Source: an uncultured Planctomycetia bacterium
Lineage (GTDB): Bacteria; Omnitrophota; Gorgyraeia; Tantalellales; Tantalellaceae
Length of the DNA stretch: 64,000 nt
Direction of reading: 5' to 3'
NCBI GenBank assembly: GCA_964527555.1
Contig: CAZGOG010000002.1
Coordinates: forward strand, 41,698 to 105,697
The notes beneath the pieces are model-generated. The model made no database searches. It was not told the origin of the DNA and was given only the letters and a program-made list of their open reading frames with translations. The number at the start of each line of letters is the position of its first letter. Within the stretch, counting starts at the first letter, position 1. Shown here in pieces: positions 7,133 through 51,564 of this stretch. Position numbers and translations under genes: made by a program.

Positions 7133-9769
7133 CTACAGCGCCACTTCTTCCAGGTCCAGCCAGTTCCTGCCCGCCTCAACATCCACTTTAAGAGGGACCT
7201 TAAGCTCGATAACGCCTTCCATGAGTCTTTTCACTTTTTCGCTGGCTTCTTCCAGCATCTCTAGAGGCAGCTTAAAGACAAGCTCATCGTGCACCTGTAT
7301 GATCGTTTTCACTCCGGAAGCCTTAAACTCCTTATCGCAAGCTATCATCGCAAGTTTTATGAGATCCGCCGCCGAACCCTGCACGGGCGTGTTGACCGCG
7401 ACTCTTTCGGCAAAACCTTTTACGTGTTCGTTTGAGGCGTTTATCTCAGGGATATACCTTCTCCTTTTTAATAGCGTCGTGACAAAACCTTTTTTCCTGG
7501 CGGAAGCGATCGTCTTCGTTATAAAAGACTTCACCCCGCTGTATCGTTTGAAATAAGCGTCGATGAAGCCTTGCGCTTCTTCGGCGCTTATGCCTAAGTC
7601 TTTTGCCAGGCCGAAAGCGCTCATGCCGTAAGCTATCCCGAAATTAACCGTCTTGGCCACCGAACGCATCTTATCGGTCACTTCCGCAAGCTTACAGCCG
7701 TATATCTCACTCGCGGTTGAGCGGTGCACATCCTCTCCTTTTTTAAAAGCCGATATCAAACGCTTGTCATCCGCCAGGTGCGCCAGAATCCTGAGCTCCA
7801 CCTGGGAATAGTCCGCCGCAAGAAGCACCATGCCTTTCCCGCCGGGTATAAACGCGCGCCTGACCTCTTTGCCCAGTTTCGTTTTTATGGGGATATTCTG
7901 CAGGTTCGGCTCGCTCGAGGAAAGCCTGCCCGTTGCGGTGACCGCCTGGTTGAAATGGGCATGCAGCGTGTGAGTGCCCTCATCCACCAGGTTCAGTATC
8001 GAATCATAATAAGTGCTTTTAAGTTTGCTTATCTCGCGGTACTCCAGAAGCACCGCGGGCAGTTCATGCACTTCCGTCAGCCGGCGGAGAACCGACTCAT
8101 CGGTCGAGGCGCCCGTCTTTGTCTTTTTCGTCACGGCAAGGCCCAGTTTCTCATACAGAATGACCTGGAGCTGCTTGGGTGAATTTATATTGAATTCTTC
8201 TCCGGCAAGTTTATATATCCGTGAGGATATTTCCTCCAGCTCTTTCTCCATGGCTTTGGAGCGCGTCTCGAGGTACTTGATGTCGATGCCCACGCCTTCA
8301 GCCTCCATATCGGCAAGGATACCGGCAAGCGGCATCTCGACGTCCCTGAAAAGAGGTTTGAGATGCTTCTCGTCAAGCTGCGGCTCTAACACGTTATACA
8401 GTCTCTCTATTATATCGCTTCTTTCACACGCATGAAGGGCTTCTTTGACGCCTGAGAAGTCCATCTCGGCCTGGCCGCTCGCGCCCCAGCCGACTGCCCC
8501 GGTATCCTCCGAAAGGCTGTATCCAAGCTGACGCATCGCTATCGATTCCAGGTCGTATTTCCCGCGCGAGGGATCGATAAGGTAATCGGCTATCATCACG
8601 TCGAACGAGACGCCTTTAATATCGATACCGCGCTTGCGTAAAGCGAGTATATCGTTTTTTATGTCATGCCCCCTCTTCTGGAGGGTATCATCTTCAAGAA
8701 CGCCTTTAATTATAGGCAGGAGTTCTTTGTTCATCGGGATAAAGTAAGCTAACCTCTCATCGCAGGAAAACGCAATCCCGTTTATGTCGGAGTCCGCGAA
8801 AGAGACGCTCATCGAAACCTTCTTACCCCTCGACATCTCTTTTACGGCTTCTTCTACTTCTTTGGGTTTCTTTTTTACGGCGTATTTAGTCTCCTCCCTC
8901 TCTATAGTAGAGATCTCCTTTAAAAGCTTCTGGAACTCGAATTCCTTAAAGAGTTCCTTCAGGCGGTCCGTATCGGCTTCGCCTAAATGCGCCTCATCGA
9001 TATCCATATCCACATCCACTTCCATGTCCAGCTGTGCGAGCTGGCGGCTGAGCTCTGCCATCTCTTTGCCTTCGATGAGTTTTTTCTTTGTCGCTTCTGA
9101 AGCGATTCTATCGACATTCTCATAAACACCCTTAAGCGAACCGTACTCTTGGATAAGTTTGGCAGCGGTGACCTTGCCGATACCTTTCACCCCGGGTATA
9201 TTATCGGTCGTATCCCCTATAAGAGCCATAAGGTCTACCATCTTAGAGGGAGAGACCCCGTACTTCTCCTCGACGCTTTTCGCGTCATACAGTTTATCAC
9301 CCATCGGGTGCGGCGAAAGAACCTTGGTCTTTTCATCCACGAGCTGCAGGGCGTCTTTATCCCCGGTGACTATCGTCACCAGAAAACCCTTCTTCTTAGC
9401 CTCTTTGGTCAAAGTCGCGATAATATCATCCGCTTCATACCCCTCTTTCTCGCATACGGGGATCCTGTACGCTTCGACCAGCTCTTTGATCCTGGGGATC
9501 TGGCTGATAAGGTCGTCCGGCATCACCGGACGGTGCACCTTGTACTCTTTATACTTTTTATGCCTGACTGTCGGCCCTTTCACGTCAAAAGCTACGGCCA
9601 GCATGTCGGGTTGATATTCCCGGATAAGCTTACGCAATATGTTTAAAAAACCGTATATCGCATTGGTGGGCATGCCCTTGGAGGTACTCAGCTCGCGTAT
9701 AGCGTAGTACGCCCGATAGCAAAGCGAATGTCCGTCTACAAGGTAAATATTTTTACTTTTCTTGCTCAT
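7133..9769 (-). CDS. polA: DNA polymerase I (5'-3' exonuclease + 3'-5' exonuclease + polymerase domains)
   Basis: 878 aa. N-terminal 5'-nuclease (YLVDGHSLCYRAYYA), a central 3'-5' exo-like region, and family-A polymerase motifs (DYSQVELRILAHL, VHDELVF). Confidence 0.95.
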   Translation of the reverse strand: MSKKSKNIYLVDGHSLCYRAYYAIRELSTSKGMPTNAIYGFLNILRKLIREYQPDMLAVAFDVKGPTVRHKKYKEYKVHRPVMPDDLISQIPRIKELVEAYRIPVCEKEGYEADDIIATLTKEAKKKGFLVTIVTGDKDALQLVDEKTKVLSPHPMGDKLYDAKSVEEKYGVSPSKMVDLMALIGDTTDNIPGVKGIGKVTAAKLIQEYGSLKGVYENVDRIASEATKKKLIEGKEMAELSRQLAQLDMEVDVDMDIDEAHLGEADTDRLKELFKEFEFQKLLKEISTIEREETKYAVKKKPKEVEEAVKEMSRGKKVSMSVSFADSDINGIAFSCDERLAYFIPMNKELLPIIKGVLEDDTLQKRGHDIKNDILALRKRGIDIKGVSFDVMIADYLIDPSRGKYDLESIAMRQLGYSLSEDTGAVGWGASGQAEMDFSGVKEALHACERSDIIERLYNVLEPQLDEKHLKPLFRDVEMPLAGILADMEAEGVGIDIKYLETRSKAMEKELEEISSRIYKLAGEEFNINSPKQLQVILYEKLGLAVTKKTKTGASTDESVLRRLTEVHELPAVLLEYREISKLKSTYYDSILNLVDEGTHTLHAHFNQAVTATGRLSSSEPNLQNIPIKTKLGKEVRRAFIPGGKGMVLLAADYSQVELRILAHLADDKRLISAFKKGEDVHRSTASEIYGCKLAEVTDKMRSVAKTVNFGIAYGMSAFGLAKDLGISAEEAQGFIDAYFKRYSGVKSFITKTIASARKKGFVTTLLKRRRYIPEINASNEHVKGFAERVAVNTPVQGSAADLIKLAMIACDKEFKASGVKTIIQVHDELVFKLPLEMLEEASEKVKRLMEGVIELKVPLKVDVEAGRNWLDLEEVAL

Positions 9770-19110: not shown

Positions 19111-19233
19111 GTGAAGCTCCATGGGCTAACGCCCATGGCATCCACAGTTTCAGTCTTTCCGTCAAGCGGAATCCTGCACCGAAGGCCATTCATCCACGCC
19201 CTTACGGGCGTGGCCTTCCGGTGCATGGGCAAA
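19111..19233 (+). repeat. 123-bp structured interspersed repeat, copy A (orientation gtgaagctcc...catgggcaaa)
   Basis: Read directly. Near-identical to 43978..44100 and to the reverse complement of 39128..39250 and 53179..53301. Contains hairpin ccatgggc-taac-gcccatgg and a nested hairpin tgcaccgaaggcc[attcatcc acgccc-ttac-gggcgtgg]ggccttccggtgca. Confidence 0.9.
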
Positions 19234-37402: not shown

Positions 37403-39166
37403 CTACTTCTTCTTCCTGAAATCCAGCCAGGGCGCGTATTCCCTCTTGGGCTGCACCGCTTCGGTGTTTCCTACAGGAACTTCTACCTGTTTCTGGGTGG
37501 TTTTCAGCTTCCCCGTCATAAGCACGGGGGCTGTTTCGGTTTCCTCGGCGCTTTCTTTCTGCGTTATGTATTTATCAAAGTGCGGCTGGGTCTCGGAATC
37601 AGCGATGGAATCCATGGCGTCTTTCACCAGGTGCACCGTGACGAAAAATACGATCTCAGTTCTTCGGATTTCTTCGGATTCGTATTTGAAAAGACTTCCC
37701 AGAACCGGTATGCCACCCAAAAGGTCGCCCAGTATCGGGAGTTTATTATCCTCTGTCACCAGCTCTTTCCGTATAAGCCCCCCCAGGAAAATCGTGTCTC
37801 CGTCTCTCACCCTTATGATCGTGTTAGCCTCCCTGGAATTAAACGTAAGGGCCACTGTTCCCTGCTGGGCCGCTCCGGCAAGCGTGAGCACGCTAAAGCC
37901 TTCGTTATTAGAGACTTCCGGCAGGAGATTGACGGAGATGTCCCCTTCTTCGTTGACATGGGGGATCACCACGAGCTTCACGCCGACTTCCCTGGCATCC
38001 TCTATATCTTCAAATTGAACGGTAACGGTCGTGGAGGTATCTGTACTCTGCAGCGCCTCCTGCAGCATTATTTTCTGGATTACCTTTATAGTGGCTCTTT
38101 GATTATTCAATGTCGTTATACGGGGACTTGAAAGTATCTCGGAATCGCCCCTCTGGTCTATAAGCGCCAGAGTCGCGGTAAAGGTACTAAAGTCCAGGTA
38201 ACCATACGTGAACAGATCCGTGCCGGCGAGAGCCTGGGCAACCGCGGGGATACCTGTATCCGTAATCCAGGGAAAAGTTGGAGCAAATCCTCTTCCTCCT
38301 GTCGAAGGATAATACTTCTCATCCGGCGCACCGTTTAAAAACGGCAAGGTCCCGTCGTTTTTAAAGGGAAAGGTGATCGGCTTTTTAGCCCCGGCAGCCG
38401 TTATTACCGCGTTCCAATCCACGCCGAAACGTTCGTCCTCGTTTAAGAGGATCTCGACAACTTTCGCATCAAGTATGATCTGGGGGGTCTTCTTGTCGAT
38501 CTTGCTTATCATCGTTTTGATGTCGCTTATGCGCGCGGGTATCGCCGTTATCACTATGGAATTAACGCTTGAGATATATGTGGCTTTTTCGCCCTGCCTG
38601 GGGTTAAGGATTGAGTTGATCGCCGTCATCAGCTGGTTGATGCTTTCTTCCTTCTGCTCTACAAGCACCTCTTCATTGCCTTCTTCCGTTTTGGTCAGCT
38701 CAATATCACGTATGAGGTGATTTAAGGGTATGACCTCTGTCACGGGCTCTTCCGCGTGAAGCTGTCCTTTGGGTATGACCCTTATGATGTCGCCCTCGCG
38801 TGAATAGACGTATCCGTAGTTTCTTGTCACGATGTCAAGTGCCACTTCCCAGGGTTTGTTCCTTAGACGCATGGTGACCAGGCCCTCGACTCCGGGAGAC
38901 GGGATTATATCGACCCCGCTTACCTCGGAAAGGTAATGAAGGACTGTCTTTATATCCACATCCTTGAAATTGACAGTCACGTTCCCGGCTTCGGCCAAAG
39001 GCTGGCCTATATCCTCTTTGACCGGGGATGTTTGGGCAGCACCCGCAGGTGAAACATTCACCTGGGCATATGAATCCACTATTAGCAGCGAATTCATAAA
39101 TAAAATCGCAACAACTGGCGCAAGAACTTTTACCCATGCACCAGAAGGCCACGCCCGTAAGGGCAT
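37403..39166 (-). CDS. pilQ: Type IV pilus secretin PilQ
   Basis: Secretin N-domains (VTVNFKDVDIKTVLHYLSEVSGVDII) and a C-terminal secretin domain (GDTIFLGGLIRKELVTEDNKLPILGDLLGGIPVLGSLFKYESEEIRRTEIVFFVTVHLV). The long ORF starts at 39271 inside repeat copy B. The plausible start is an ATG at 39166 (MPLRAWPSGAWVKVLAPVVAILF... signal-like), also inside the repeat. Start uncertain. Confidence 0.85.
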   Translation of the reverse strand: MPLRAWPSGAWVKVLAPVVAILFMNSLLIVDSYAQVNVSPAGAAQTSPVKEDIGQPLAEAGNVTVNFKDVDIKTVLHYLSEVSGVDIIPSPGVEGLVTMRLRNKPWEVALDIVTRNYGYVYSREGDIIRVIPKGQLHAEEPVTEVIPLNHLIRDIELTKTEEGNEEVLVEQKEESINQLMTAINSILNPRQGEKATYISSVNSIVITAIPARISDIKTMISKIDKKTPQIILDAKVVEILLNEDERFGVDWNAVITAAGAKKPITFPFKNDGTLPFLNGAPDEKYYPSTGGRGFAPTFPWITDTGIPAVAQALAGTDLFTYGYLDFSTFTATLALIDQRGDSEILSSPRITTLNNQRATIKVIQKIMLQEALQSTDTSTTVTVQFEDIEDAREVGVKLVVIPHVNEEGDISVNLLPEVSNNEGFSVLTLAGAAQQGTVALTFNSREANTIIRVRDGDTIFLGGLIRKELVTEDNKLPILGDLLGGIPVLGSLFKYESEEIRRTEIVFFVTVHLVKDAMDSIADSETQPHFDKYITQKESAEETETAPVLMTGKLKTTQKQVEVPVGNTEAVQPKREYAPWLDFRKKK

Positions 39167-39250
39167 GGATGAATGGCCTTCGGTGCAGGATTCCGCTTGA
39201 CGGAACCCTGAAACTGTGGATGCCATGGGCGTTAGCCCATGGAGCTTCAC
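39128..39250 (-). repeat. 123-bp structured interspersed repeat, copy B (reverse-complement orientation)
   Basis: The reverse complement of 39128..39250 aligns end-to-end with copy A, with only a few transitions and a 1-nt indel. Lies between pilP and pilQ and overlaps the pilQ 5' end. Confidence 0.9.
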
Positions 39251-39310
39251 TATTCGACTAAATTTTTTCATGTTCCCCCCCCATTACGAATTTAAAAACC
39301 GTACTTCTTT

Positions 39311-39691
39311 CTATTCCTCATAAAGTTTTATTTCATGCTCGTCTTCATCTATTTTTATTTTCACAACATTGGCATCTATCGACTCGACTGTAAGTACGCC
39401 GATACTGTCGCCTTCGGTCATAAACTCGCCGTTAATGATGGCGCTCCTTTTTCCGGCGGGATCGATAACAATCCCCTGAAGCACGACATCGTCTACGGTA
39501 AGCACTCCCCTGGCACCGCCCCGCGTTCCATCCTGCGGGACGCCGATTAAAGGCACGAAGGGGTCCCTGCGTCCAAGCGATTTATATTCGAATGCAGAAG
39601 CCTCATCCGGCAGCAAGCCCGCAATAGCCATAACGAGACTCACCGCCAGCAGAAACGTATATGCTCCGCTATTTCTTTTCATCATCTCCAA
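39311..39691 (-). CDS. pilP: Type IV pilus assembly protein PilP (pilotin-like lipoprotein)
   Basis: 126 aa. Signal peptide, RRDPFVPL motif, short beta domain. Follows pilO in a pilMNOPQ operon. Confidence 0.75.
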   Translation of the reverse strand: MEMMKRNSGAYTFLLAVSLVMAIAGLLPDEASAFEYKSLGRRDPFVPLIGVPQDGTRGGARGVLTVDDVVLQGIVIDPAGKRSAIINGEFMTEGDSIGVLTVESIDANVVKIKIDEDEHEIKLYEE

Positions 39692-40280
39692 CCGCCACGT
39701 AGGCTTTTAAGACTATTTTCACGTTATGAGACCTGGGATATTTGCTGTCGTATTGCACCGAGAGGTCCTGGATCTCAACGAACCTTTCCCCCTGCTCGAG
39801 TTTGTTGATAAAATAACCCAGCTGATGATATCCGCTCTTCGCGGTTATAACTATAGGCATTTCGCGAAAATACCTGGCGGTCTCCTCGTCTAACCCCTTG
39901 GTGGAAAACTCCTGGGGGGTGACGCTTAGTATCTTCACGTTCGATTCCTTGGCCATGGCAGCCAGACCTTCCAAAAATTTGGGTATTTCTTTTTCGACTG
40001 GAAGCTGTTTGGCATACCGGGTCTGTTCTTCCCGTAGAACGTTTAATCTCTCTGTCATCTCATCCAGACGTTTTTCCCGGCTTTCAACAAGATTTATCCT
40101 GTCTTTAAGATCCTTGACCATCCTGGAAACCTCAGAAAGACTGTTAAACGTCGGCAGGATGAGAAATGTAAGGTAAAGCACCACGATGATAACCGCGCCG
40201 CCCACAGTGACATACAGTTTCTTCTGCTCGTCCTCGAAAAACTCTTTTATCTTGTCTTGCTGCGTATTAAAATCGATCAT
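39669..40280 (-). CDS. pilO: Type IV pilus assembly protein PilO
   Basis: 203 aa. Single N-terminal TM, coiled coil, C-terminal PilO-type domain. Operon position between pilN and pilP. Confidence 0.75.
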   Translation of the reverse strand: MIDFNTQQDKIKEFFEDEQKKLYVTVGGAVIIVVLYLTFLILPTFNSLSEVSRMVKDLKDRINLVESREKRLDEMTERLNVLREEQTRYAKQLPVEKEIPKFLEGLAAMAKESNVKILSVTPQEFSTKGLDEETARYFREMPIVITAKSGYHQLGYFINKLEQGERFVEIQDLSVQYDSKYPRSHNVKIVLKAYVAVGDDEKK

Positions 40281-42107: not shown

Positions 42108-43976
42108 CTATGGTTTACTTTTCCCCTCCGATATGATCTTTCGCATAAGTTCGGCCGGTTTTTTAAAACCGGGGTCGCACATGATTGCTTTTTGAAGATA
42201 CATCTTTGCCTGTTTTTCTTCTCCCCCCGCGAGAAAAACCTCCCCAAGATTATAAAAAGCAAGCGGCCTCTCGGGATAAAGTTTTGCGGCTTCCAGATAA
42301 TAAGTCGCTGCCTCAGGCAGATACCCCATACGGCTATATGCGGTGCCAAGATTGATAAGGGCATTGTAATCGTACGGCTTGATCCTGTATGCTCTTTTAG
42401 ACACTTCGAGAGCTTTTTCATCTTCCCCGCTCTCCGAATAGATGGCACCAAGAATAAGAAGCGCTTCAGAGTGCCTGGGGCTCATCTCAAGCACTTTCTC
42501 CAAATAGTTTATTGCGGCTGTCTTATCACCCCGCTTAAGCTCCACCAAAGCCATCCCCACATATGCGTCAAAATTATCGGGGTCGATAGCAAGCACTGTT
42601 TTAAAATCGCGTTCAGCTTCATCCGCCGCTCCCGAAGCAAGCTGCCACCTTCCTCTTAAATAAAGCGCTGCCGCATCGCCGGGCCGGGTCTCTACATAAG
42701 AGTCCATCTCATCCAAAGCCTTCTGGTTTATTTTACCTTTTTTGGATGATACGGCTTTGTAGAACATGGCTGAATCATCTTCTTTTGAAAAAGAAAGTAC
42801 TCGGCCGCTTAAAGATTCGCTCGTCTGCCAGTATTTAGTCTGGGCTATCGTTATGCTCGCAAGGGTGGCAACGATAACAAGAACGCCTCCGGCAATAAGA
42901 TATTTTGACGGCTTTCCTCTTCTTTCATAAACTTCAGTAAGCGAAACTGACACAAAAAGAAATGCCCCGTAGCTGGGAAGGTAGAGCCAGTGTTCCGCGA
43001 ACACTTTGAGGCCAGCCGCCACAAAAAGAAAAGGAACAAGACTTATAAGAAAAAACCCCAATGAAAATACCAGGAGGCGTCTTGAGCCTTTCAGATAAAA
43101 AACGAGGAAGATGATTATGGCGAGAGACGCGATCACGAGGGGGTCCGCCTGTTGTAAAAAAGTGCCTGCCCTTCTCACATGAAGAGCCGCGGGAAAAATC
43201 ACCAGGAGAAAAAACTCTTTAACTATCTCGAAATATTTAGCTGATGCCTCCTCGAAACCAGCAAGCTTTATAACGGTGTGATACCTCCCCCCGAAAAAGA
43301 GGTAATGCGCCAGCGCATATACCCCGCAAAGAAGAAAAGCCGGCACCTGACTTGTCATCCTCTTTTCTCTGAGAACTAATATGCTCATCAAAAGAAGCAG
43401 AAACGGAAAAATAAGCGCCGTTTCCTTTGAAAGAAGCGCAAGCGCCAGAGAAAAAACGCTTGCGGCAAGAAAGATCGGTTTTTTTAATTCTACGTATCTC
43501 ACGTAAAAAATCATGTACAGAAATCCGAACAAAAAGAAAAGCAGGTCCGCCCTGCTGGAGATATATGCTACTACTCCGACATAGGCGGGGTGGATTATAA
43601 ATAAAAGAGAAGCAAGCAATGCCGGCGCCTTCTTGCGCGCAAGCTCCAGCGTCAAATAAAAAACTAATAGACCGTTAAAAAAATGTAGAAGGATACCTGT
43701 AATATGAAACCCCAACGGATTCATCCCCCACAGCCGGTAATCCAAAGCGTAAGTGAGCATCTGCACGGGCCGGTAATAGATAGAGTATATGAAACTGGAG
43801 TTTATTACATCCTGCTTGAATACCTGAAAGGACGCTAAAGACGCGCGAATCTGGGGGTTTTCAAGAACTATGAACTTATCGTCCCACACAAAACCGGCAC
43901 CAGTGACATTGCCGTACGAGACCGCTGTTGCGGTAAGAAGAAGTAACGCTATAAGAATATTTTTACGTGTCAGCAT
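42108..43976 (-). CDS. Multi-pass membrane protein with GT39/PMT-like (DUF1736/TMTC-like) N-terminal region and C-terminal TPR repeats
   Basis: ORF 42108..44099 trimmed to the ATG at 43976, immediately after repeat copy C. The longer TTG-initiated ORF would translate the repeat. N-terminal motif GFVWDDKFIVLENPQI plus ~11 TM helices, then 6-8 TPR units (AAALYLRGRWQLASGAADEAERDFKTVLAIDPDNFDAYVGMAL...). Confidence 0.7.
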   Translation of the reverse strand: MLTRKNILIALLLLTATAVSYGNVTGAGFVWDDKFIVLENPQIRASLASFQVFKQDVINSSFIYSIYYRPVQMLTYALDYRLWGMNPLGFHITGILLHFFNGLLVFYLTLELARKKAPALLASLLFIIHPAYVGVVAYISSRADLLFFLFGFLYMIFYVRYVELKKPIFLAASVFSLALALLSKETALIFPFLLLLMSILVLREKRMTSQVPAFLLCGVYALAHYLFFGGRYHTVIKLAGFEEASAKYFEIVKEFFLLVIFPAALHVRRAGTFLQQADPLVIASLAIIIFLVFYLKGSRRLLVFSLGFFLISLVPFLFVAAGLKVFAEHWLYLPSYGAFLFVSVSLTEVYERRGKPSKYLIAGGVLVIVATLASITIAQTKYWQTSESLSGRVLSFSKEDDSAMFYKAVSSKKGKINQKALDEMDSYVETRPGDAAALYLRGRWQLASGAADEAERDFKTVLAIDPDNFDAYVGMALVELKRGDKTAAINYLEKVLEMSPRHSEALLILGAIYSESGEDEKALEVSKRAYRIKPYDYNALINLGTAYSRMGYLPEAATYYLEAAKLYPERPLAFYNLGEVFLAGGEEKQAKMYLQKAIMCDPGFKKPAELMRKIISEGKSKP

Positions 43977-43977
43977 A

Positions 43978-44100
43978 GTGAAGCTCCATGGGCTAACGCC
44001 CATGGCATCCACAGTTTCAGTTTTTCCGTCAAGCGGAACCCTGTACCGAAGGCCATTCATCCACGCCCATAAGGGCGTGGCCTTCTGGTGTATGGGCAAA
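43978..44100 (+). repeat. 123-bp structured interspersed repeat, copy C
   Basis: Same orientation as copy A with ~10 substitutions, mostly C>T transitions that convert G-C pairs into G-U wobbles in the nested hairpins. Lies between pilA1 3' end and the TMTC-like gene start. Confidence 0.9.
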
Positions 44101-46541: not shown

Positions 46542-48254
46542 TCAAGTAACTCTCAAAACTTCCTCTAAAGTGGTCCATCCCTTGATAAACTTCATCATCG
46601 CATTATCACGCAAAGTCCTCGTGCCTTTTGTCCTCAAATACTCCCTTATCTCGCCTTCGGAAGCCTTTTTATCTATCATCTTTTTTATCCGGTCATCTAT
46701 AAGAAGCGTCTCGAGTGTCCCAAGCCTGCCGCTGTAACCCGTGCCGCTGCACCTCGGACACCCTCTTCCCTTATAGAACTTACCCACACCCCGGGCTTCG
46801 GGATACTTTTTATGCATTTCGTCTATCATCTTTGCCGGTATCTCCGCTTCGACCTTGCAATGCGGGCATATCCTTCTAAGAAGTCTCTGGGCACATGCCA
46901 TGATGAGACTCGCCCCGACAAGGAAGGGTTCAATACCCATATTCTCAAGACGCGTGATCGCCCCGACCGCATCGTTCGTATGCAGGGTGCTTAAGACCAT
47001 CTGCCCTGTAAGCGAAGCTTTGATGGCTATATCCGCGGTCTCAAAATCTCTTATCTCTCCCACCAGGATAACATCCGGGCTCTGGCGCAGTATCGCCCTC
47101 AAGCCGCTGGCGAAGTCCAGTCCTATTTCAGGCCGGGCTGCTATCTGGGTTATGCCGGCAACCTGGTACTCAACGGGATCCTCCACAGTGATTATGTTCC
47201 GCTCGGGAGTATTCATCTCGTTAAGCACCGAATAAAGCGTGGTGGATTTACCGCTGCCGGTGGGGCCTGTGACCAGTATTATCCCAAAGGGCCTCGAAAG
47301 CGCTTCCTTGAAATCAGCCAGAGGTTCCGGCAAAAACCCGAGAGACTCAAGCCCAAGAGAGAGACTCCCCTTGTCAAGCGCCCTCAAGACTATCTTATTG
47401 CCGAAACTTATGGGAAGCACGGAAACGCGGAAATCTATGTCTCTTTTCTCAAGTTTTATGCGGAACCTTCCGTCCTGCGGCACCCTCGTCTCCGTGATGT
47501 CAAGAGTAGACATTATTTTCAGACGCGCTATTATCGCGTTCTGGTTCTTCTTCGGCAGGTCGAAAACGCTGTGAAGCTGTCCGTCAATGCGATAGCGGAT
47601 CCTGAGCGATTTTTCCTGAGGTTCAATATGGATATCACTGGCTCTTTTCTTGATCGCCTCGCTTATTATAAGATCGACCATCTTGACAATGGGCGCCGCC
47701 GTACTTTCTCTGGTTATCTCCCTTACGTCAAGGCCTTCCTCCCTTTTAACAACTTCTACGTCAGATCCGCCTGCCTCCTCGTCCATGATGGTGGAGATGT
47801 CGACCTCTTCTTCAACCTCATAAAAGGCGCGCAGGACCTCCTGAAGCTCCTTACGGGTGGCCAGAGTCAGTTCCACGTCACAGCCCGTTACGGTCTTGAC
47901 ATCGTCTATCGCATAAACGTCAGTAGGGTCAGAGACAATAAGCGTCATATCCTTGCCGATCTTGGACAGTGGCACTACAGAATGACGCCGGGCCACTTTC
48001 TCCGGCACCAGGCTCATCGTATCATCATCCAATACAACTCTTGAAATATCTATAGGGGGGATATTTAATTCACCGCTTAACGTTATTAAAAGATCGTGGT
48101 CTGAGACGGCTCCGCTTTCGGAAAGCGCTTTTATTATGTCGCTTCTGTTTTTCCTCTTGAGCTCGTTATCGAGCTTGTTCCGCGTCTCTTCGTCTATCAG
48201 CCCATTGTCCCGCAAGGCTTTCAGTATCCTGTCTTTTATTAGAAGTTGTGTCAT
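46542..48254 (-). CDS. pilB: Type IV pilus extension ATPase PilB (GspE family) with N-terminal MshEN/T2SSE_N domain
   Basis: 570 aa. Walker A GPTGSGKSTTLY, Asp box, His box, tetracysteine CPHCK...CPRCSGTGYSGR. N-terminal GSPII_E_N-type domain. Confidence 0.85.
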   Translation of the reverse strand: MTQLLIKDRILKALRDNGLIDEETRNKLDNELKRKNRSDIIKALSESGAVSDHDLLITLSGELNIPPIDISRVVLDDDTMSLVPEKVARRHSVVPLSKIGKDMTLIVSDPTDVYAIDDVKTVTGCDVELTLATRKELQEVLRAFYEVEEEVDISTIMDEEAGGSDVEVVKREEGLDVREITRESTAAPIVKMVDLIISEAIKKRASDIHIEPQEKSLRIRYRIDGQLHSVFDLPKKNQNAIIARLKIMSTLDITETRVPQDGRFRIKLEKRDIDFRVSVLPISFGNKIVLRALDKGSLSLGLESLGFLPEPLADFKEALSRPFGIILVTGPTGSGKSTTLYSVLNEMNTPERNIITVEDPVEYQVAGITQIAARPEIGLDFASGLRAILRQSPDVILVGEIRDFETADIAIKASLTGQMVLSTLHTNDAVGAITRLENMGIEPFLVGASLIMACAQRLLRRICPHCKVEAEIPAKMIDEMHKKYPEARGVGKFYKGRGCPRCSGTGYSGRLGTLETLLIDDRIKKMIDKKASEGEIREYLRTKGTRTLRDNAMMKFIKGWTTLEEVLRVT

Positions 48255-48261
48255 CTTACAA

Positions 48262-49998
48262 TCATCCTGTCTCTTTGTCTCCGAGAGTTATGCGCAAGAC
48301 ATCCTCAAGAGAAGCAACACCGTCGATCACGTTTTCTATGCCGTTTTCCCTCAGTGTAGTCATCCCGTCACACCTGGCGGCTTTTTCTATATCAGCCGCA
48401 TCGGCTTCTTTAAATATAAGATCCTTTATCGCGGGGGTCAGTATAAGACATTCTATGATACCGAGTCTGCCCTGATATCCGGAATTTGCGCATCTTTTGC
48501 ATCCCTTAGGACGATAGATCTTCATGGGAGATGAGTCCCTGTCAAGAAGGCCGTATTTCTCGGCAACCTCTTTCGGCGGAAAATACTCTTCCTTGCATTC
48601 GGGACATAACTTTCTCAGAAGTCTCTGCGCCGCTATAAGTTCCACGGAAGCCGCAATAAGGAAAGGTTCTACTCCCATATTTATCATCCTCACGATCGCC
48701 CCGCTTGCGGTATTGGTATGGAGAGTGCTTAAGACAAGGTGCCCGGTAAGCGCGGACTTGATCGCGACGTCCAAGGTATCGAAATCCCTTATCTCACCCA
48801 CCATGATAACATCCGGGTCCTGTCTTAAAATCGAACGCAGAGACCCCGCAAAAGTAAGCCCTATATCCTCTTTTATTGAAACCTGGTTAATACCTTTAAG
48901 CTCGTATTCTACGGGGTCTTCCACGGTGATCAGGTTCTTTTTCGGATCGTCCACATGCTTAAGTATGGAATACAAGGTCGTGGTCTTCCCGCAGCCGGTA
49001 GGCCCGCAGACAAGGATCATTCCGTGAGGCCTTTCGCTGGCGGTGCGTATCTTCTCTTTATCCTTTTCTTTGAAACCCAAAACATCCAGGTCTATCTTGG
49101 CATACTGCCGATCGAGTATTCTAAGGGCGGCTTTCTCGCCGTAGCTTGAGGGTACTATGGAGACCCTGAAGTCTATCTTTCTGCCTTCGACTTTTATCCT
49201 GAACCTGCCGTCCTGGGGCAGGCGCCTTTCAGCGATATCAAGGTTAGACATGACTTTAATGCGCGATATTATCGGCTGGTGGAACTTCTTGCTGGGCGCG
49301 TATCGTTCAAATAACGTGCCGTCTATACGGTAACGCACTCTGGACTTGTTCTCCATCGGCTCTATCAAAACATCGCTGGAACGCTCCTTGACGGCCTTGC
49401 TTAATATCGTGTTGGTAAGCTTGACCACAGGCGCTTCTTCCGTTATCTTAAGTAGATCTATCGAGGAGAGATCCTCTTCCTCGCCGGAGACCATCTGCAT
49501 CTGAGAGCTTTCTATGTCGTCCACTATGGCGCTTATCTCTTCGTCCGCCGACTTTTCGTAATACTGCCGGAGAGCATCTTTCATCTCATCTTCAGCGGCA
49601 ATAACGGGGCTGACATTGAGCTTGGTCATGATCTTGATGTCATCGAGCACGAATATGTTCAGAGGATCGACCATGGCAACCGTAAGCTGCTTGCCTATAC
49701 GCGAAATCGGCAGTATCCCTTCCTCAAGCGCGGTCTTCTTGGGTATAAGCGCGAGCACCTCATCCTCGATTTTAAGACTGGAAAGCTTAACCGGAGGGAA
49801 TCCCAGTTCTTCACTCAAGGCCGTTAAAAGGTCATCCCTTGACAGCGCATGCATTTCGACCAGCGTATCGCCTATATTGCCCCCTTTTTTCGTACAGGCT
49901 TCCTCCGCCTTTTTAAGGTCCTCTTTGGTGATAAGTCCCTTCTTAAGGAGAAGGTCACAAATCTTTTTAGTAAGTGAAAGCGGCATCTTTACCAGCAC
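48262..49998 (-). CDS. Second PilB/GspE-family secretion ATPase paralog with N-terminal MshEN-like domain
   Basis: 578 aa. Walker A GPTGCGKTTTLY, CPECK...CKRCANSGYQGR, N-terminal T2SSE_N-like domain. In tandem with pilB. Confidence 0.8.
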   Translation of the reverse strand: MLVKMPLSLTKKICDLLLKKGLITKEDLKKAEEACTKKGGNIGDTLVEMHALSRDDLLTALSEELGFPPVKLSSLKIEDEVLALIPKKTALEEGILPISRIGKQLTVAMVDPLNIFVLDDIKIMTKLNVSPVIAAEDEMKDALRQYYEKSADEEISAIVDDIESSQMQMVSGEEEDLSSIDLLKITEEAPVVKLTNTILSKAVKERSSDVLIEPMENKSRVRYRIDGTLFERYAPSKKFHQPIISRIKVMSNLDIAERRLPQDGRFRIKVEGRKIDFRVSIVPSSYGEKAALRILDRQYAKIDLDVLGFKEKDKEKIRTASERPHGMILVCGPTGCGKTTTLYSILKHVDDPKKNLITVEDPVEYELKGINQVSIKEDIGLTFAGSLRSILRQDPDVIMVGEIRDFDTLDVAIKSALTGHLVLSTLHTNTASGAIVRMINMGVEPFLIAASVELIAAQRLLRKLCPECKEEYFPPKEVAEKYGLLDRDSSPMKIYRPKGCKRCANSGYQGRLGIIECLILTPAIKDLIFKEADAADIEKAARCDGMTTLRENGIENVIDGVASLEDVLRITLGDKETG

Positions 49999-50502: not shown

Positions 50503-51564
50503 TTATCCGATCACTTTAATCAGTTCCTCCACGTCGGATGACCTTGCAAGAGCGTTCTCTTTTGTTATCAGGCTTTTGGCATAAAGCTCAGCCAGAGCCT
50601 GGTTCATCGTCTTCATGCCCACCTTCTGGGACGTCTGGATAATGGAATATACCTGGTGCTCTTTACTGTCACGTATCATGCTTCTAACGGCAGTGTTGGT
50701 CACCAGGACCTCAGTTGCCAGGACCATGCCCGGCTTATCTTTGCGGGGCAATAGCTGCTGCGAGAGGATACCGAGCAGCACAAACGCAAGCTGTGCCCTG
50801 ACCTGCCTTTGCTGATGTGATGGAAAGACGTCTACCATACGGTTTATCGACTGGGTGGCATCTGAAGTGTGCAGGGTCCCCAGCACAAGGTGTCCGGTGT
50901 CGGCAATGATAAGCGCCTCCTGTATGGTCTCCAGGTCCCGCATCTCTCCCACCAGTATAACATCCGGGTCCTGCCGGAGCACAAACCTGAGTGCATTCCT
51001 GAAAGAGTAGGTATCTTCGAGTATCTGCCTCTGATCGATAACGGCCTTTTTGTTCTTATGGACAAATTCGATCGGGTCTTCAACCGTCACGATATGACAG
51101 TTACGTTTGGAGTTGATCTCATCCACCATAGCCGCAAGGGTCGTCGTCTTGCCGCTGCCGGTAGCTCCGGTAACAAGGATAAGCCCCTTCTGATAAGTGC
51201 AGAATCTTTTTACCACCGCTTCGGGCAGGCCGCATTCGGCGATACTCATGATCTCGACAGGGATCAGCCTTATGGCGCAACCGACGCTGCCCCTCTGGAT
51301 GAAGGCATTACCCCTGTACCTGCCCACCTTCTCTATGGACAAGGAAAAATCAAGTTCCTTTTCCCTTTCAAACTTTTTTATCTGCTCTGCGTTTATGAGG
51401 CTGTACACAAAGTCTTTAGTCTGGTCCGGGGAACAAATCTTTTCATCCACCTCTACCAGCTCATTGTGGATGCGGTAATGCATGGGACTGTTGGCGCTGA
51501 TATGAAGATCCGATGCCTTCTTCCCGGGCATGGCCTCGAGTATCTTTCTGATATTATCCTTCAT
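50503..51564 (-). CDS. pilT: Twitching motility ATPase PilT
   Basis: 353 aa. Walker A GATGSGKTTTLAAM, PilT-specific AIRLIP and GMxTxxxxLxxL-type C-terminus, no N-terminal GSPII_E_N domain. Confidence 0.9.
   Translation of the reverse strand: MKDNIRKILEAMPGKKASDLHISANSPMHYRIHNELVEVDEKICSPDQTKDFVYSLINAEQIKKFEREKELDFSLSIEKVGRYRGNAFIQRGSVGCAIRLIPVEIMSIAECGLPEAVVKRFCTYQKGLILVTGATGSGKTTTLAAMVDEINSKRNCHIVTVEDPIEFVHKNKKAVIDQRQILEDTYSFRNALRFVLRQDPDVILVGEMRDLETIQEALIIADTGHLVLGTLHTSDATQSINRMVDVFPSHQQRQVRAQLAFVLLGILSQQLLPRKDKPGMVLATEVLVTNTAVRSMIRDSKEHQVYSIIQTSQKVGMKTMNQALAELYAKSLITKENALARSSDVEELIKVIG

Follow-up and report, generated by a model that had tools for sequence, protein, structure and literature searches.

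In-frame insertion of a repeat in the secretin gene pilQ

The type IV pilus secretin gene pilQ was found to be interrupted in frame by a copy of a short repeat in a 64,000-nucleotide (nt) stretch of DNA from an uncultured Omnitrophota bacterium (contig CAZGOG010000002.1; hereafter the window, in whose positions all coordinates are given). The inserted element proper occupied 117 nt (39250-39134, minus strand) and supplied 39 codons encoding VKLHGLTPMASTVSGFRQAESCTEGHSSMPLRAWPSGAW. Comparison with relatives indicated that it lies between codons 7 and 8 of pilQ, in the n-region of the signal peptide, and that the ATG at 39271, outside the repeat, is the ancestral start codon. An in-frame insertion of mobile DNA with retention of the ancestral start was considered, with moderate confidence, to be the best explanation of the data as a whole.

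The pilQ open reading frame (ORF; 39271-37403, minus strand, 622 amino acids (aa) including the 39 inserted residues) crossed this repeat copy, termed copy B, without any stop, as an earlier note on this DNA had read from the longest ORF. A G-rich Shine-Dalgarno (SD) sequence, GGGGGGGG (39282-39275), was located 3 nt upstream of ATG 39271, and codons 1-7 (MKKFSRI, 39271-39251) preceded the insertion, so that the product from this ATG begins MKKFSRIVKLHG. The rest of the signal peptide (39133-39065) consisted of VK, the hydrophobic h-region VLAPVVAILFMNSLLIV (39127-39077) and the c-region DSYA, with signal peptidase cleavage predicted after A69 (39067-39065) and before Q70. The hydrophobic core comprised 17 residues with a Kyte-Doolittle peak of 2.85. 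The features of a Sec/signal peptidase I substrate, namely a charged n-region, the 17-residue h-region and S-Y-A/Q (slashes in sequences mark junctions), were recognized by manual feature analysis only. The A/Q junction was kept in the PilQ orthologues, whose signal peptides have an n-region of 9-13 aa with a charge of +4/+5, followed by a hydrophobic core of 17-21 aa and A/Q.

Empty site in relatives and the ancestral start codon

A search with the PilP-like protein encoded directly upstream of pilQ led to a 67%-identical PilP (P0124) on an 11-kb ENA contig. The pilQ gene on this contig (L052) encoded a protein 81% identical to the window PilQ over 452 residues, and BLASTP aligned its residue 8 with residue 47 of the window protein, an offset of exactly 39 residues. 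The pilP-pilQ junction of L052 was uninterrupted (MKKFNKLVKIVAPV...), reading ...CAGGGGGAAAA ATG AAA AAA TTC AAT AAA TTA GTA AAG ATA GTT GCA CCG..., which translates to MKKFNKLVKIVAPVIAVVFMNSLVVVDSNA/QVNVSPTG. When positions 39250-39134 were removed from the window, the two sequences became colinear without a gap from the SD sequence through codon 40. The excision joined ...CGAATA to GTAAAAGTT in pilQ (39251/39133), and the excised sequence encoded a normal 31-aa signal peptide, MKKFSRIVKVLAPVVAILFMNSLLIVDSYA/QVNVSPAG. On the top strand, the empty site CTTTAC/TAATTT of L052 corresponded to TTTTAC/(117 nt)/TATTCG in the window. The junction was compared by explicit excision followed by realignment, since MAFFT had put the gap in the wrong place when the two DNA sequences were aligned directly.

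A second relative, L041, whose PilQ is 75% identical, was represented by a mis-joined scaffold with a gap of N characters. Its pilP-side piece ended with GGGGGAAGAA ATG AGA AAA ATA AGT CGA CTG ATG AAA TTT TTT (MRKISRLMKFF), and the pilQ-side piece picked up again at PLLIIIFMNSLIVVDAHS/Q. The window codons 1-7, MKKFSRI, corresponded to MKKFNKL in L052 and MRKISRL in L041, and G-rich SD sequences stood at the same place in both relatives (GGGGGAAG in L041, GGGGGAAA in L052). The empty site of L052, together with the same start and SD sequence in L041, identifies ATG 39271 with its G-run SD as the ancestral pilQ start lying outside the repeat, and the repeat as an in-frame insertion in the signal peptide n-region. 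The earlier note had proposed that either the element donated the start of the secretin or the true start is a non-ATG codon downstream, placing the repeat in the pilP-pilQ junction and the 5' region of the mRNA. The 5' end of the secretin gene is indeed entangled with the repeat, but neither proposed origin of the start was supported: ATG 39271 and its SD sequence lie upstream of the repeat and are conserved in both relatives, and the repeat is located inside the coding sequence.

In the public scaffold of L041 (1-296 of Ga0216261_1037329), a reverse-complemented pilP piece is fused to pilQ across a gap of 10 N, which falls in the signal-peptide region of pilQ and represents a mis-scaffold, not biology. 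Due to this gap, the gene caller truncated PilQ to a GVG-start protein of 557 aa (P0002). The GTG start thus called in L041 (VDAHSQ...) is the one observation in favor of a true start downstream of the repeat, either a non-ATG codon or ATG 39097, which would leave the repeat wholly in the 5' untranslated region. This call is an artefact of the gap. A well-supported start downstream of 39128 was looked for and none was found: the candidates lacked an SD sequence and would leave no more than 2 residues in front of a hydrophobic core that is itself truncated, with ATG 39097 giving a 2-residue n-region and an SD duplex of 0.3 kcal/mol. In all orthologues, including that with the empty site, the h-region is preceded by an initial n-region rich in K/R. 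A downstream start is effectively refuted by these data.

Copies of the repeat family

The four copies in the window, each of approximately 123 nt (nhmmer E about 1e-42), shared 91-100% identity, far beyond chance. Two of them (19111-19233 and 43978-44100) had one orientation and two (39250-39129, copy B, and 53301-53179) the other. A 21-mer from the repeat retrieved 39 stretches in the JGI metagenomes Ga0180431-438, and had no match in the GTDB species representatives or in a scan of IMG/VR. With nhmmer, 57 matches were obtained, which included at least 27 distinct full copies at unrelated loci. These copies occurred in both orientations with respect to the neighboring genes, and were mostly intergenic, at gene ends or starts. 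Copies at unrelated loci were nearly identical and assemblies broke there, many contigs terminating inside a copy.

The inserted DNA fell into length classes of 117, 118 and 119 nt, which differed in a middle hairpin. The class of 117 nt, found at three of the 27 loci (copy B, L009 and L018), is the only one divisible by 3, and three of its six frames are free of stops, including the frame used in pilQ. A frame-restoring deletion after insertion was considered as the origin of the 1-nt shortness of copy B, and was rejected as L009 and L018 share the short middle hairpin; the short class is therefore a subclass that already existed. The middle hairpin (columns 41-67 of alignment A2; 39210-39186 in copy B) was seen in two versions with perfect pairing, CAGTCTTTCCG…CGGAAAGACTG and CAGGGTTCCG…CGGAACCCTG, and its commonest form was a mismatched chimera, CAGTCTTTCCG…CGGAACCCTG; this pattern suggests recombination or gene conversion between subfamilies. 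Long variants were also observed (L015 2605-2783 and 10961-11142; L016 6559-6740), in which some 56-60 additional nt, …TTCTTCTTCGCTAAAGCTTCAAAGGAATAGTT…GGTGAAGCA…, are nested in the third hairpin region; they may represent another small element that entered the first one.

A second 21-mer detected one diverged relative, L044, in a scan of GTDB genomes (7424-7556 of CAYJUK010000080.1, in a metagenome-assembled genome labelled uncultured Planctomycetales). It had the same termini, GTGGAGC… and …GGCCTTCTGGTGCATGGGTAAA. Its internal hairpins differed, one of them being fully compensated (CCACGGGC-AG-GCCCGTGG). The family thus reaches beyond the source organism, within the PVC-group bacteria.

The copy B region was predicted to fold at -65.4 kcal/mol for 141 nt (z=-6.0) into three hairpins and a long-range stem, so the description of the element as structured in the earlier note was correct. 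The left-end subterminal hairpin (39149-39168; CCAUGCCC-UUAC-GGGCGUGG on the mRNA strand) and the right-end one (39223-39242; CCATGGGC-TAAC-GCCCATGG on the same strand) both form in the RNA folds, and the middle hairpin CAGGGTTCCG-TCAAG-CGGAATCCTG (39186-39210) is the short variant that makes this copy 117 nt long instead of 118 or 119 nt. This strong structure, the compensatory hairpin changes in the distant relative L044 and the tendency of the copies toward gene ends and starts would also be expected if the repeat were no mobile DNA but a dedicated regulatory module, acting in cis or as a small RNA on the stability or translation of mRNAs from its place at gene boundaries. We regard such a module as very improbable. 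The copies take both orientations relative to the flanking genes, near-identical copies break assemblies at unrelated loci, and the junctions are specific to TTAC with the site empty in L052. Covariation within the family was essentially nil, with one compensatory pair and a covariation term of -0.13 among 26 copies, the family being too uniform for this test. A promoter/terminator scan of 38900-39700 gave no signal within the element, and Rfam searches, at gathering thresholds for the whole window and at E<=1 for the locus, gave nothing credible; the sole match at the locus, an HCV stem-loop with E=0.03, was rejected.

Anatomy of the element ends

Although the family alignment of copy B spans 39250-39129 (nhmmer E=3.5e-42), the bases 39133-39128 (GTAAAA) are pilQ sequence outside the insert. 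They contain on the other strand the target TTAC (39130-39133, plus strand), which reads as GTAA in codons V47-K48 on the coding strand, lies directly 5' of the left end and is unduplicated. On the top strand of the transposon, which is the plus strand of the window, the flank ending in TTAC is followed by CCATGCACCAGAAGG, a first hairpin (CCACGCCC GTAA GGGCGTGG), the interior, a second hairpin (CCATGGGC GTTA GCCCATGG), the end ...AGCTTCAC and the other flank. The left end after the target thus reads TTAC-CCATGCACC.... The two end hairpins, CCATGGGC-TAAC-GCCCATGG and CCACGCCC-TTAC-GGGCGTGG, are in direct and not inverted orientation, and no inverted repetition links the end GTGAAGC... with the end ...GCATGG.

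The left flank was TTAC in 25 of the 27 copies and TTGC in the other two. The right end was ...TTCAC in all 27, the last five bases of the terminal GGAGCTTCAC being invariant. The flanks of the 27 copies were otherwise unconserved, and neither terminal inverted repeats nor target-site duplications were detected in them; the same applied to copy B at its verified empty site. On the top strand, AAGG located 5' of the left hairpin foot was a putative guide sequence. The combinations of guide and cleavage site AAGG/TTAC and GATG/TCAC, each guide standing 5' of a hairpin foot, satisfied the pairs G1-C2, G2-C1 and G4-C4, the last of which we take to be a feature of IS608 structures. The first two pairs belong to the rule described for IS608, in which four guide nucleotides on the 5' side of a hairpin foot recognize the respective cleavage site (PMC3201880). 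IS608 carries imperfect palindromes close to its ends, and its insertion on the 3' side of a TTAC neither duplicates nor removes that tetranucleotide (PMC3201880).

By this anatomy the element is probably IS200/IS605-like rather than a proven member of that family. The searches for an autonomous partner count against the assignment: tblastn with IS200 and IS608 TnpA queries found no Y1 (HUH) transposase TnpA in the 375 kb of the window and loci, and no TnpB, no full-length insertion sequence (IS) with the ends of the family and no split matches to the left and right ends were found there. The IS200/IS605 assignment is therefore drawn from the end anatomy. A weak TnpA match in L005 was rejected, being inside a ribosomal protein S1 gene. 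Other classes of mobile DNA were considered as well. A TA target-duplication model (Tc1/IS630-like) was rejected, with left flanks ending in TA at only 4 of the 27 loci and an empty site that favors 117 unduplicated nt, and a classical miniature inverted-repeat transposable element (MITE) derived from a DDE transposon was rejected for the lack of terminal inverted repeats and target-site duplication in the 27 copies and at the empty site.

Candidate start codons of the interrupted gene

In addition to ATG 39271, copy B contains an in-frame ATG (39166-39164), as the earlier note had pointed out, from which translation would give MPLRAWPSGAWVKVLAPVVAILF.... The SD duplex with the anti-SD sequence CACCUCCUU was calculated as -10.0 kcal/mol for 39271, -2.6 kcal/mol for 39166 and 0.3 kcal/mol for 39097, and the probability of the ATG being unpaired was 0.83 at 39271 and 0.42 at 39166. 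The n-region would be 48 aa (+6) from 39271, 13 aa (+3) from 39166 and 2 aa from 39097. Initiation mainly at 39271 is moderately favored, and its product is presumed to be exported.

In a rival explanation, ATG 39166 is now the main functional start, a C-to-T change after the insertion having restored a 35-residue signal peptide composed of MPLRAWPSGAWVK and the h-region. Copy B alone among the 27 copies has ATG at this position, owing to C>T at 39165, and the other 26 have ACG, GCG, CCG or GCA. The ATG was present in all nine pilQ alleles that were collected, its n-region is similar to those of the orthologues in length, and of the 351 possible single substitutions no more than 4 would introduce an additional in-frame ATG, 39166 being the only one near the h-region. 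The codon is, however, preceded by a weak SD sequence at a spacing of 10 nt and sits in a stable hairpin stem, and ribosomes from the strong upstream SD would cross it in the same frame. Moreover, variation within the family peaks in the three columns around 39166, so that a change there is not very improbable, and C>T at 39165 keeps a G-U pair in the mRNA and may be neutral. On the active DNA strand of the transposon, the left hairpin acquires a C·A mismatch from the same substitution. A main start at 39166 was judged possible, if on balance unlikely. The related proposal that ATG 39166 is functional, the start codon and the whole charged n-region of the secretin being made of transposon sequence, is offered tentatively, with slightly less confidence still; if true, it would represent an exaptation caught in the act in an essential outer-membrane secretin. 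As a weaker addition, the TTAC, guide and cleavage sequences were all kept in copy B, and exact excision could switch the presequence between its long and short forms.

Alleles of pilQ and tolerance of the insertion

Nine pilQ alleles, representing three protein variants, were obtained from JGI and ENA assemblies of several samples. All of them carried the insertion and an intact ORF, and the sole indel among them was in frame. Synonymous and nonsynonymous differences stood at 18:1. In L040 and L051, dense third-position differences from the window were observed at 38390-37973, with 10 in 15 codons (419-433) in L040, and they matched alleles of L052, the relative with 81% PilQ identity; these tracts indicate that lineages have recombined or that co-occurring strains were assembled into chimeras.

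Loss of function was weighed at this point: the insertion might have crippled export, leaving pilQ non-functional or strongly down-regulated as a young pseudogene that has not yet acquired stops. An n-region of 48 residues is atypical and includes two acidic residues, and strong RNA structure begins about 21 nt after the start codon. Against this, the 622-codon ORF was intact in nine of nine alleles with no indel out of frame, pilM, pilN, pilO and pilP were intact around it, and purifying selection would be expected to leave just such an insertion, in frame and free of stops. Extended Sec signal sequences also exist and can function (PMC2805444). We consider a pseudogene improbable.

The insertion is probably tolerated by its location in the cleaved presequence. 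It lies upstream of the h-region and before the conserved A/Q junction, and cleavage should therefore give unchanged mature PilQ. Its survival is attributable to the combination of the frame-keeping 117-nt class, a stop-free frame and a location in the part of the protein that is removed.

Proposed mechanism

We propose that a 117-nt non-autonomous mobile element was inserted 3' of a bottom-strand TTAC without target duplication, between codons 7 and 8 of pilQ, and thereby split the positive n-region of the Sec signal peptide, ancestrally MKKFSRI/VKVLAPVVAILFMNSLLIVDSYA/Q. The move presumably occurred by single-strand transposition of the IS200/IS605 type (IS608-like), a chemistry deduced from the element ends. 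Translation most likely still proceeds from the ancestral SD and ATG 39271, which would give a 69-residue presequence with a 48-residue n-region, and ATG 39166, private to this copy, may provide a 35-residue signal peptide like those of the orthologues, in addition or instead.

Several observations weigh against this explanation. The n-region of 48 residues is far outside the range of the orthologues, and the SD region of 39271 was predicted to be partly paired, with a mean probability of being unpaired of 0.35. The private change of ACG to ATG hints that the upstream start alone is perhaps insufficient. In addition, the variant tracts behind the 18:1 ratio mostly match L052-like alleles and look recombinant or chimeric, and the ratio is therefore no proof of selection after the insertion.

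Other insertions of the family

The copy at 19111-19228 occupied the last codons of pdxA (20238-19162), the present PdxA of 358 aa having its last 21 residues encoded by the element (HAPEGHARKGVDEWPSVQDSA). In silico excision of 118 nt from this copy gave a PdxA of 341 aa ending ...ALFALKTI, with the restored stop TAA 2 nt before the ATG of ksgA (start 19091), and thus served as a second, independent check that removal of an element re-creates the target. This copy was flanked by TTGC and not TTAC, which may have immobilized it. A second C-terminal replacement was found in the small TPR protein P0132 (L025/L026, 139 aa), where the C-terminus was swapped for an element peptide, …YLGDK/VKLHGLTPMASAVSVFPSSGTLHRRPFIHALTGVAFWCMGK/RRKQ…. 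These two were the only C-terminal fusions to the element that were found, and scans of open frames at all loci, combined with a protein search using element peptides, revealed spurious ORFs only and no other internal in-frame insertion.

The copy at 43978-44095 adjoined a gene for a 620-aa-class TPR/PMT-like membrane protein (MLTRKNILIALLLL...), with 1 nt between the end of the element and the ATG at 43976. The terminal GGAGCTTCAC of this copy puts GGAG 7 nt upstream of that ATG, and the element may thus supply the ribosome-binding site of the gene, as its position suggests. An ORF of 663 aa starting from TTG 44099 was discarded as an artefact of reading through the element.

Gene cluster around pilQ

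The pilus genes were all located on the minus strand. Upstream of pilQ, the cluster consisted of pilM (41984-40962; Pfam PilM_2 match), an ORF without assignment in the pilN position (40984-40277), pilO (40280-39669; Pfam PilO match) and a pilP-like gene of 124 aa (39685-39311 in the ORF list), which lies directly upstream of pilQ and ends with the stop TAG at 39313-39311. The pilP-like ORF had no Pfam match; its orthologues gave a weak T2SSB match, and its position corresponds to that of the gene which separates pilO from pilQ in orthologous loci. The pilQ product matched Pfam Secretin (6e-39) and STN (9e-10), so that it combines the Secretin and STN/N0 domains of a type IV pilus secretin with a gene position downstream of pilM, pilN, pilO and pilP. 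The order pilM-N-O-P-Q was identical in orthologous loci, and the best protein matches of the cluster were all from Candidatus Omnitrophota.

Direct repeats of the families D1 and D3 were also present in the window at 46912-47095, 48650-48833 and 50926-50979. They were 54-184 nt long with 72-80% identity and a spacing of 1.7-2.2 kb, and look like conserved segments of tandem paralogous genes.

Significance and comparison with known systems

That small mobile elements reshape genes is already known. New here are the family in Omnitrophota, the placement in the signal peptide of a secretin, the clean proof by an empty site and the candidate start-creating mutation. The family constitutes an abundant miniature element of IS608-like form in Omnitrophota that had not been described before; it breaks assemblies, replaces C-termini and can supply a ribosome-binding site. 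For annotation, the correct gene model of pilQ is the ancestral start at 39271 with a 39-codon insert; gene callers translate the transposon as the N-terminus of PilQ or truncate the gene, as with P0002, and signal-peptide predictors are likely to miss this secretin. A cleaved signal peptide can serve as a safe landing pad for mobile DNA in an essential envelope gene, and the insertions that persist are shaped by a length filter that lets only the 117-nt subclass through.

REP and REPIN sequences are short hairpins with a GTAG-type head, typically arranged as inverted doublets, and are accompanied by a RAYT gene. In the present family the end hairpins are direct and not inverted, the 5' GTGAAG is only loosely GTAG-like, and no Y1 gene was found in the 375 kb. 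With IS608 it shares the asymmetry of the element, direct subterminal hairpins, the unduplicated TTAC and a right end of the form T-C-A-N, the right cleavage site being TCAC in the family and TCAA in IS608 (PMC3201880). The left guide is AAGG for TTAC in the family and AAAG for TTAC in IS608, under the same pairing rule, and the cleavage sites are 15 and 8 nt from the left and right hairpin feet, compared with 19 and 10 nt in IS608 (PMC3201880). The family differs from IS608 in its unrelated sequence, in the extra middle hairpin and long-range stem, and in its uncultured Omnitrophota host. In mechanism it comes closest to small non-autonomous derivatives of the IS200/IS605 family ('PATE' type), its mobility being deduced from the distribution of copies and one empty site.

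Similar to the Correia elements (CREE/nemis) of Neisseria, the family is an abundant structured repeat of 100-150 nt at gene boundaries that would be co-transcribed with its neighbors and is able to supply expression signals, as with the GGAG before ATG 43976. Correia elements have terminal inverted repeats, a TA duplication, promoters, an IHF site and a role as RNase III substrates, whereas the family has neither terminal inverted repeats nor a duplication. Rickettsia palindromic elements (RPEs) and other small intragenic repeats (ERIC, BOX and cyanobacterial MITEs) are translated in frame and tolerated (PMC10969869). Copy B resembles RPEs as a short palindromic repeat read in frame as an extra peptide, a likeness in behavior only. 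RPEs are found on the surfaces of mature proteins, whereas copy B is located in a cleaved signal peptide, and the two have no lineage relationship. Unlike RPEs, only one of about 27 loci of the family is an internal in-frame insertion, and two others, in pdxA and the TPR gene, replace C-termini. Finally, the presequence of the interrupted PilQ is comparable to extended Sec signal sequences, such as those of autotransporters, which exceed 50 residues, combine an N-terminal extension with the usual n-, h- and c-regions and are still processed through Sec (PMC2805444). Those extensions are conserved, evolved domains, whereas the extension of pilQ appears to be an accidental product of mobile DNA and has no similarity to them.

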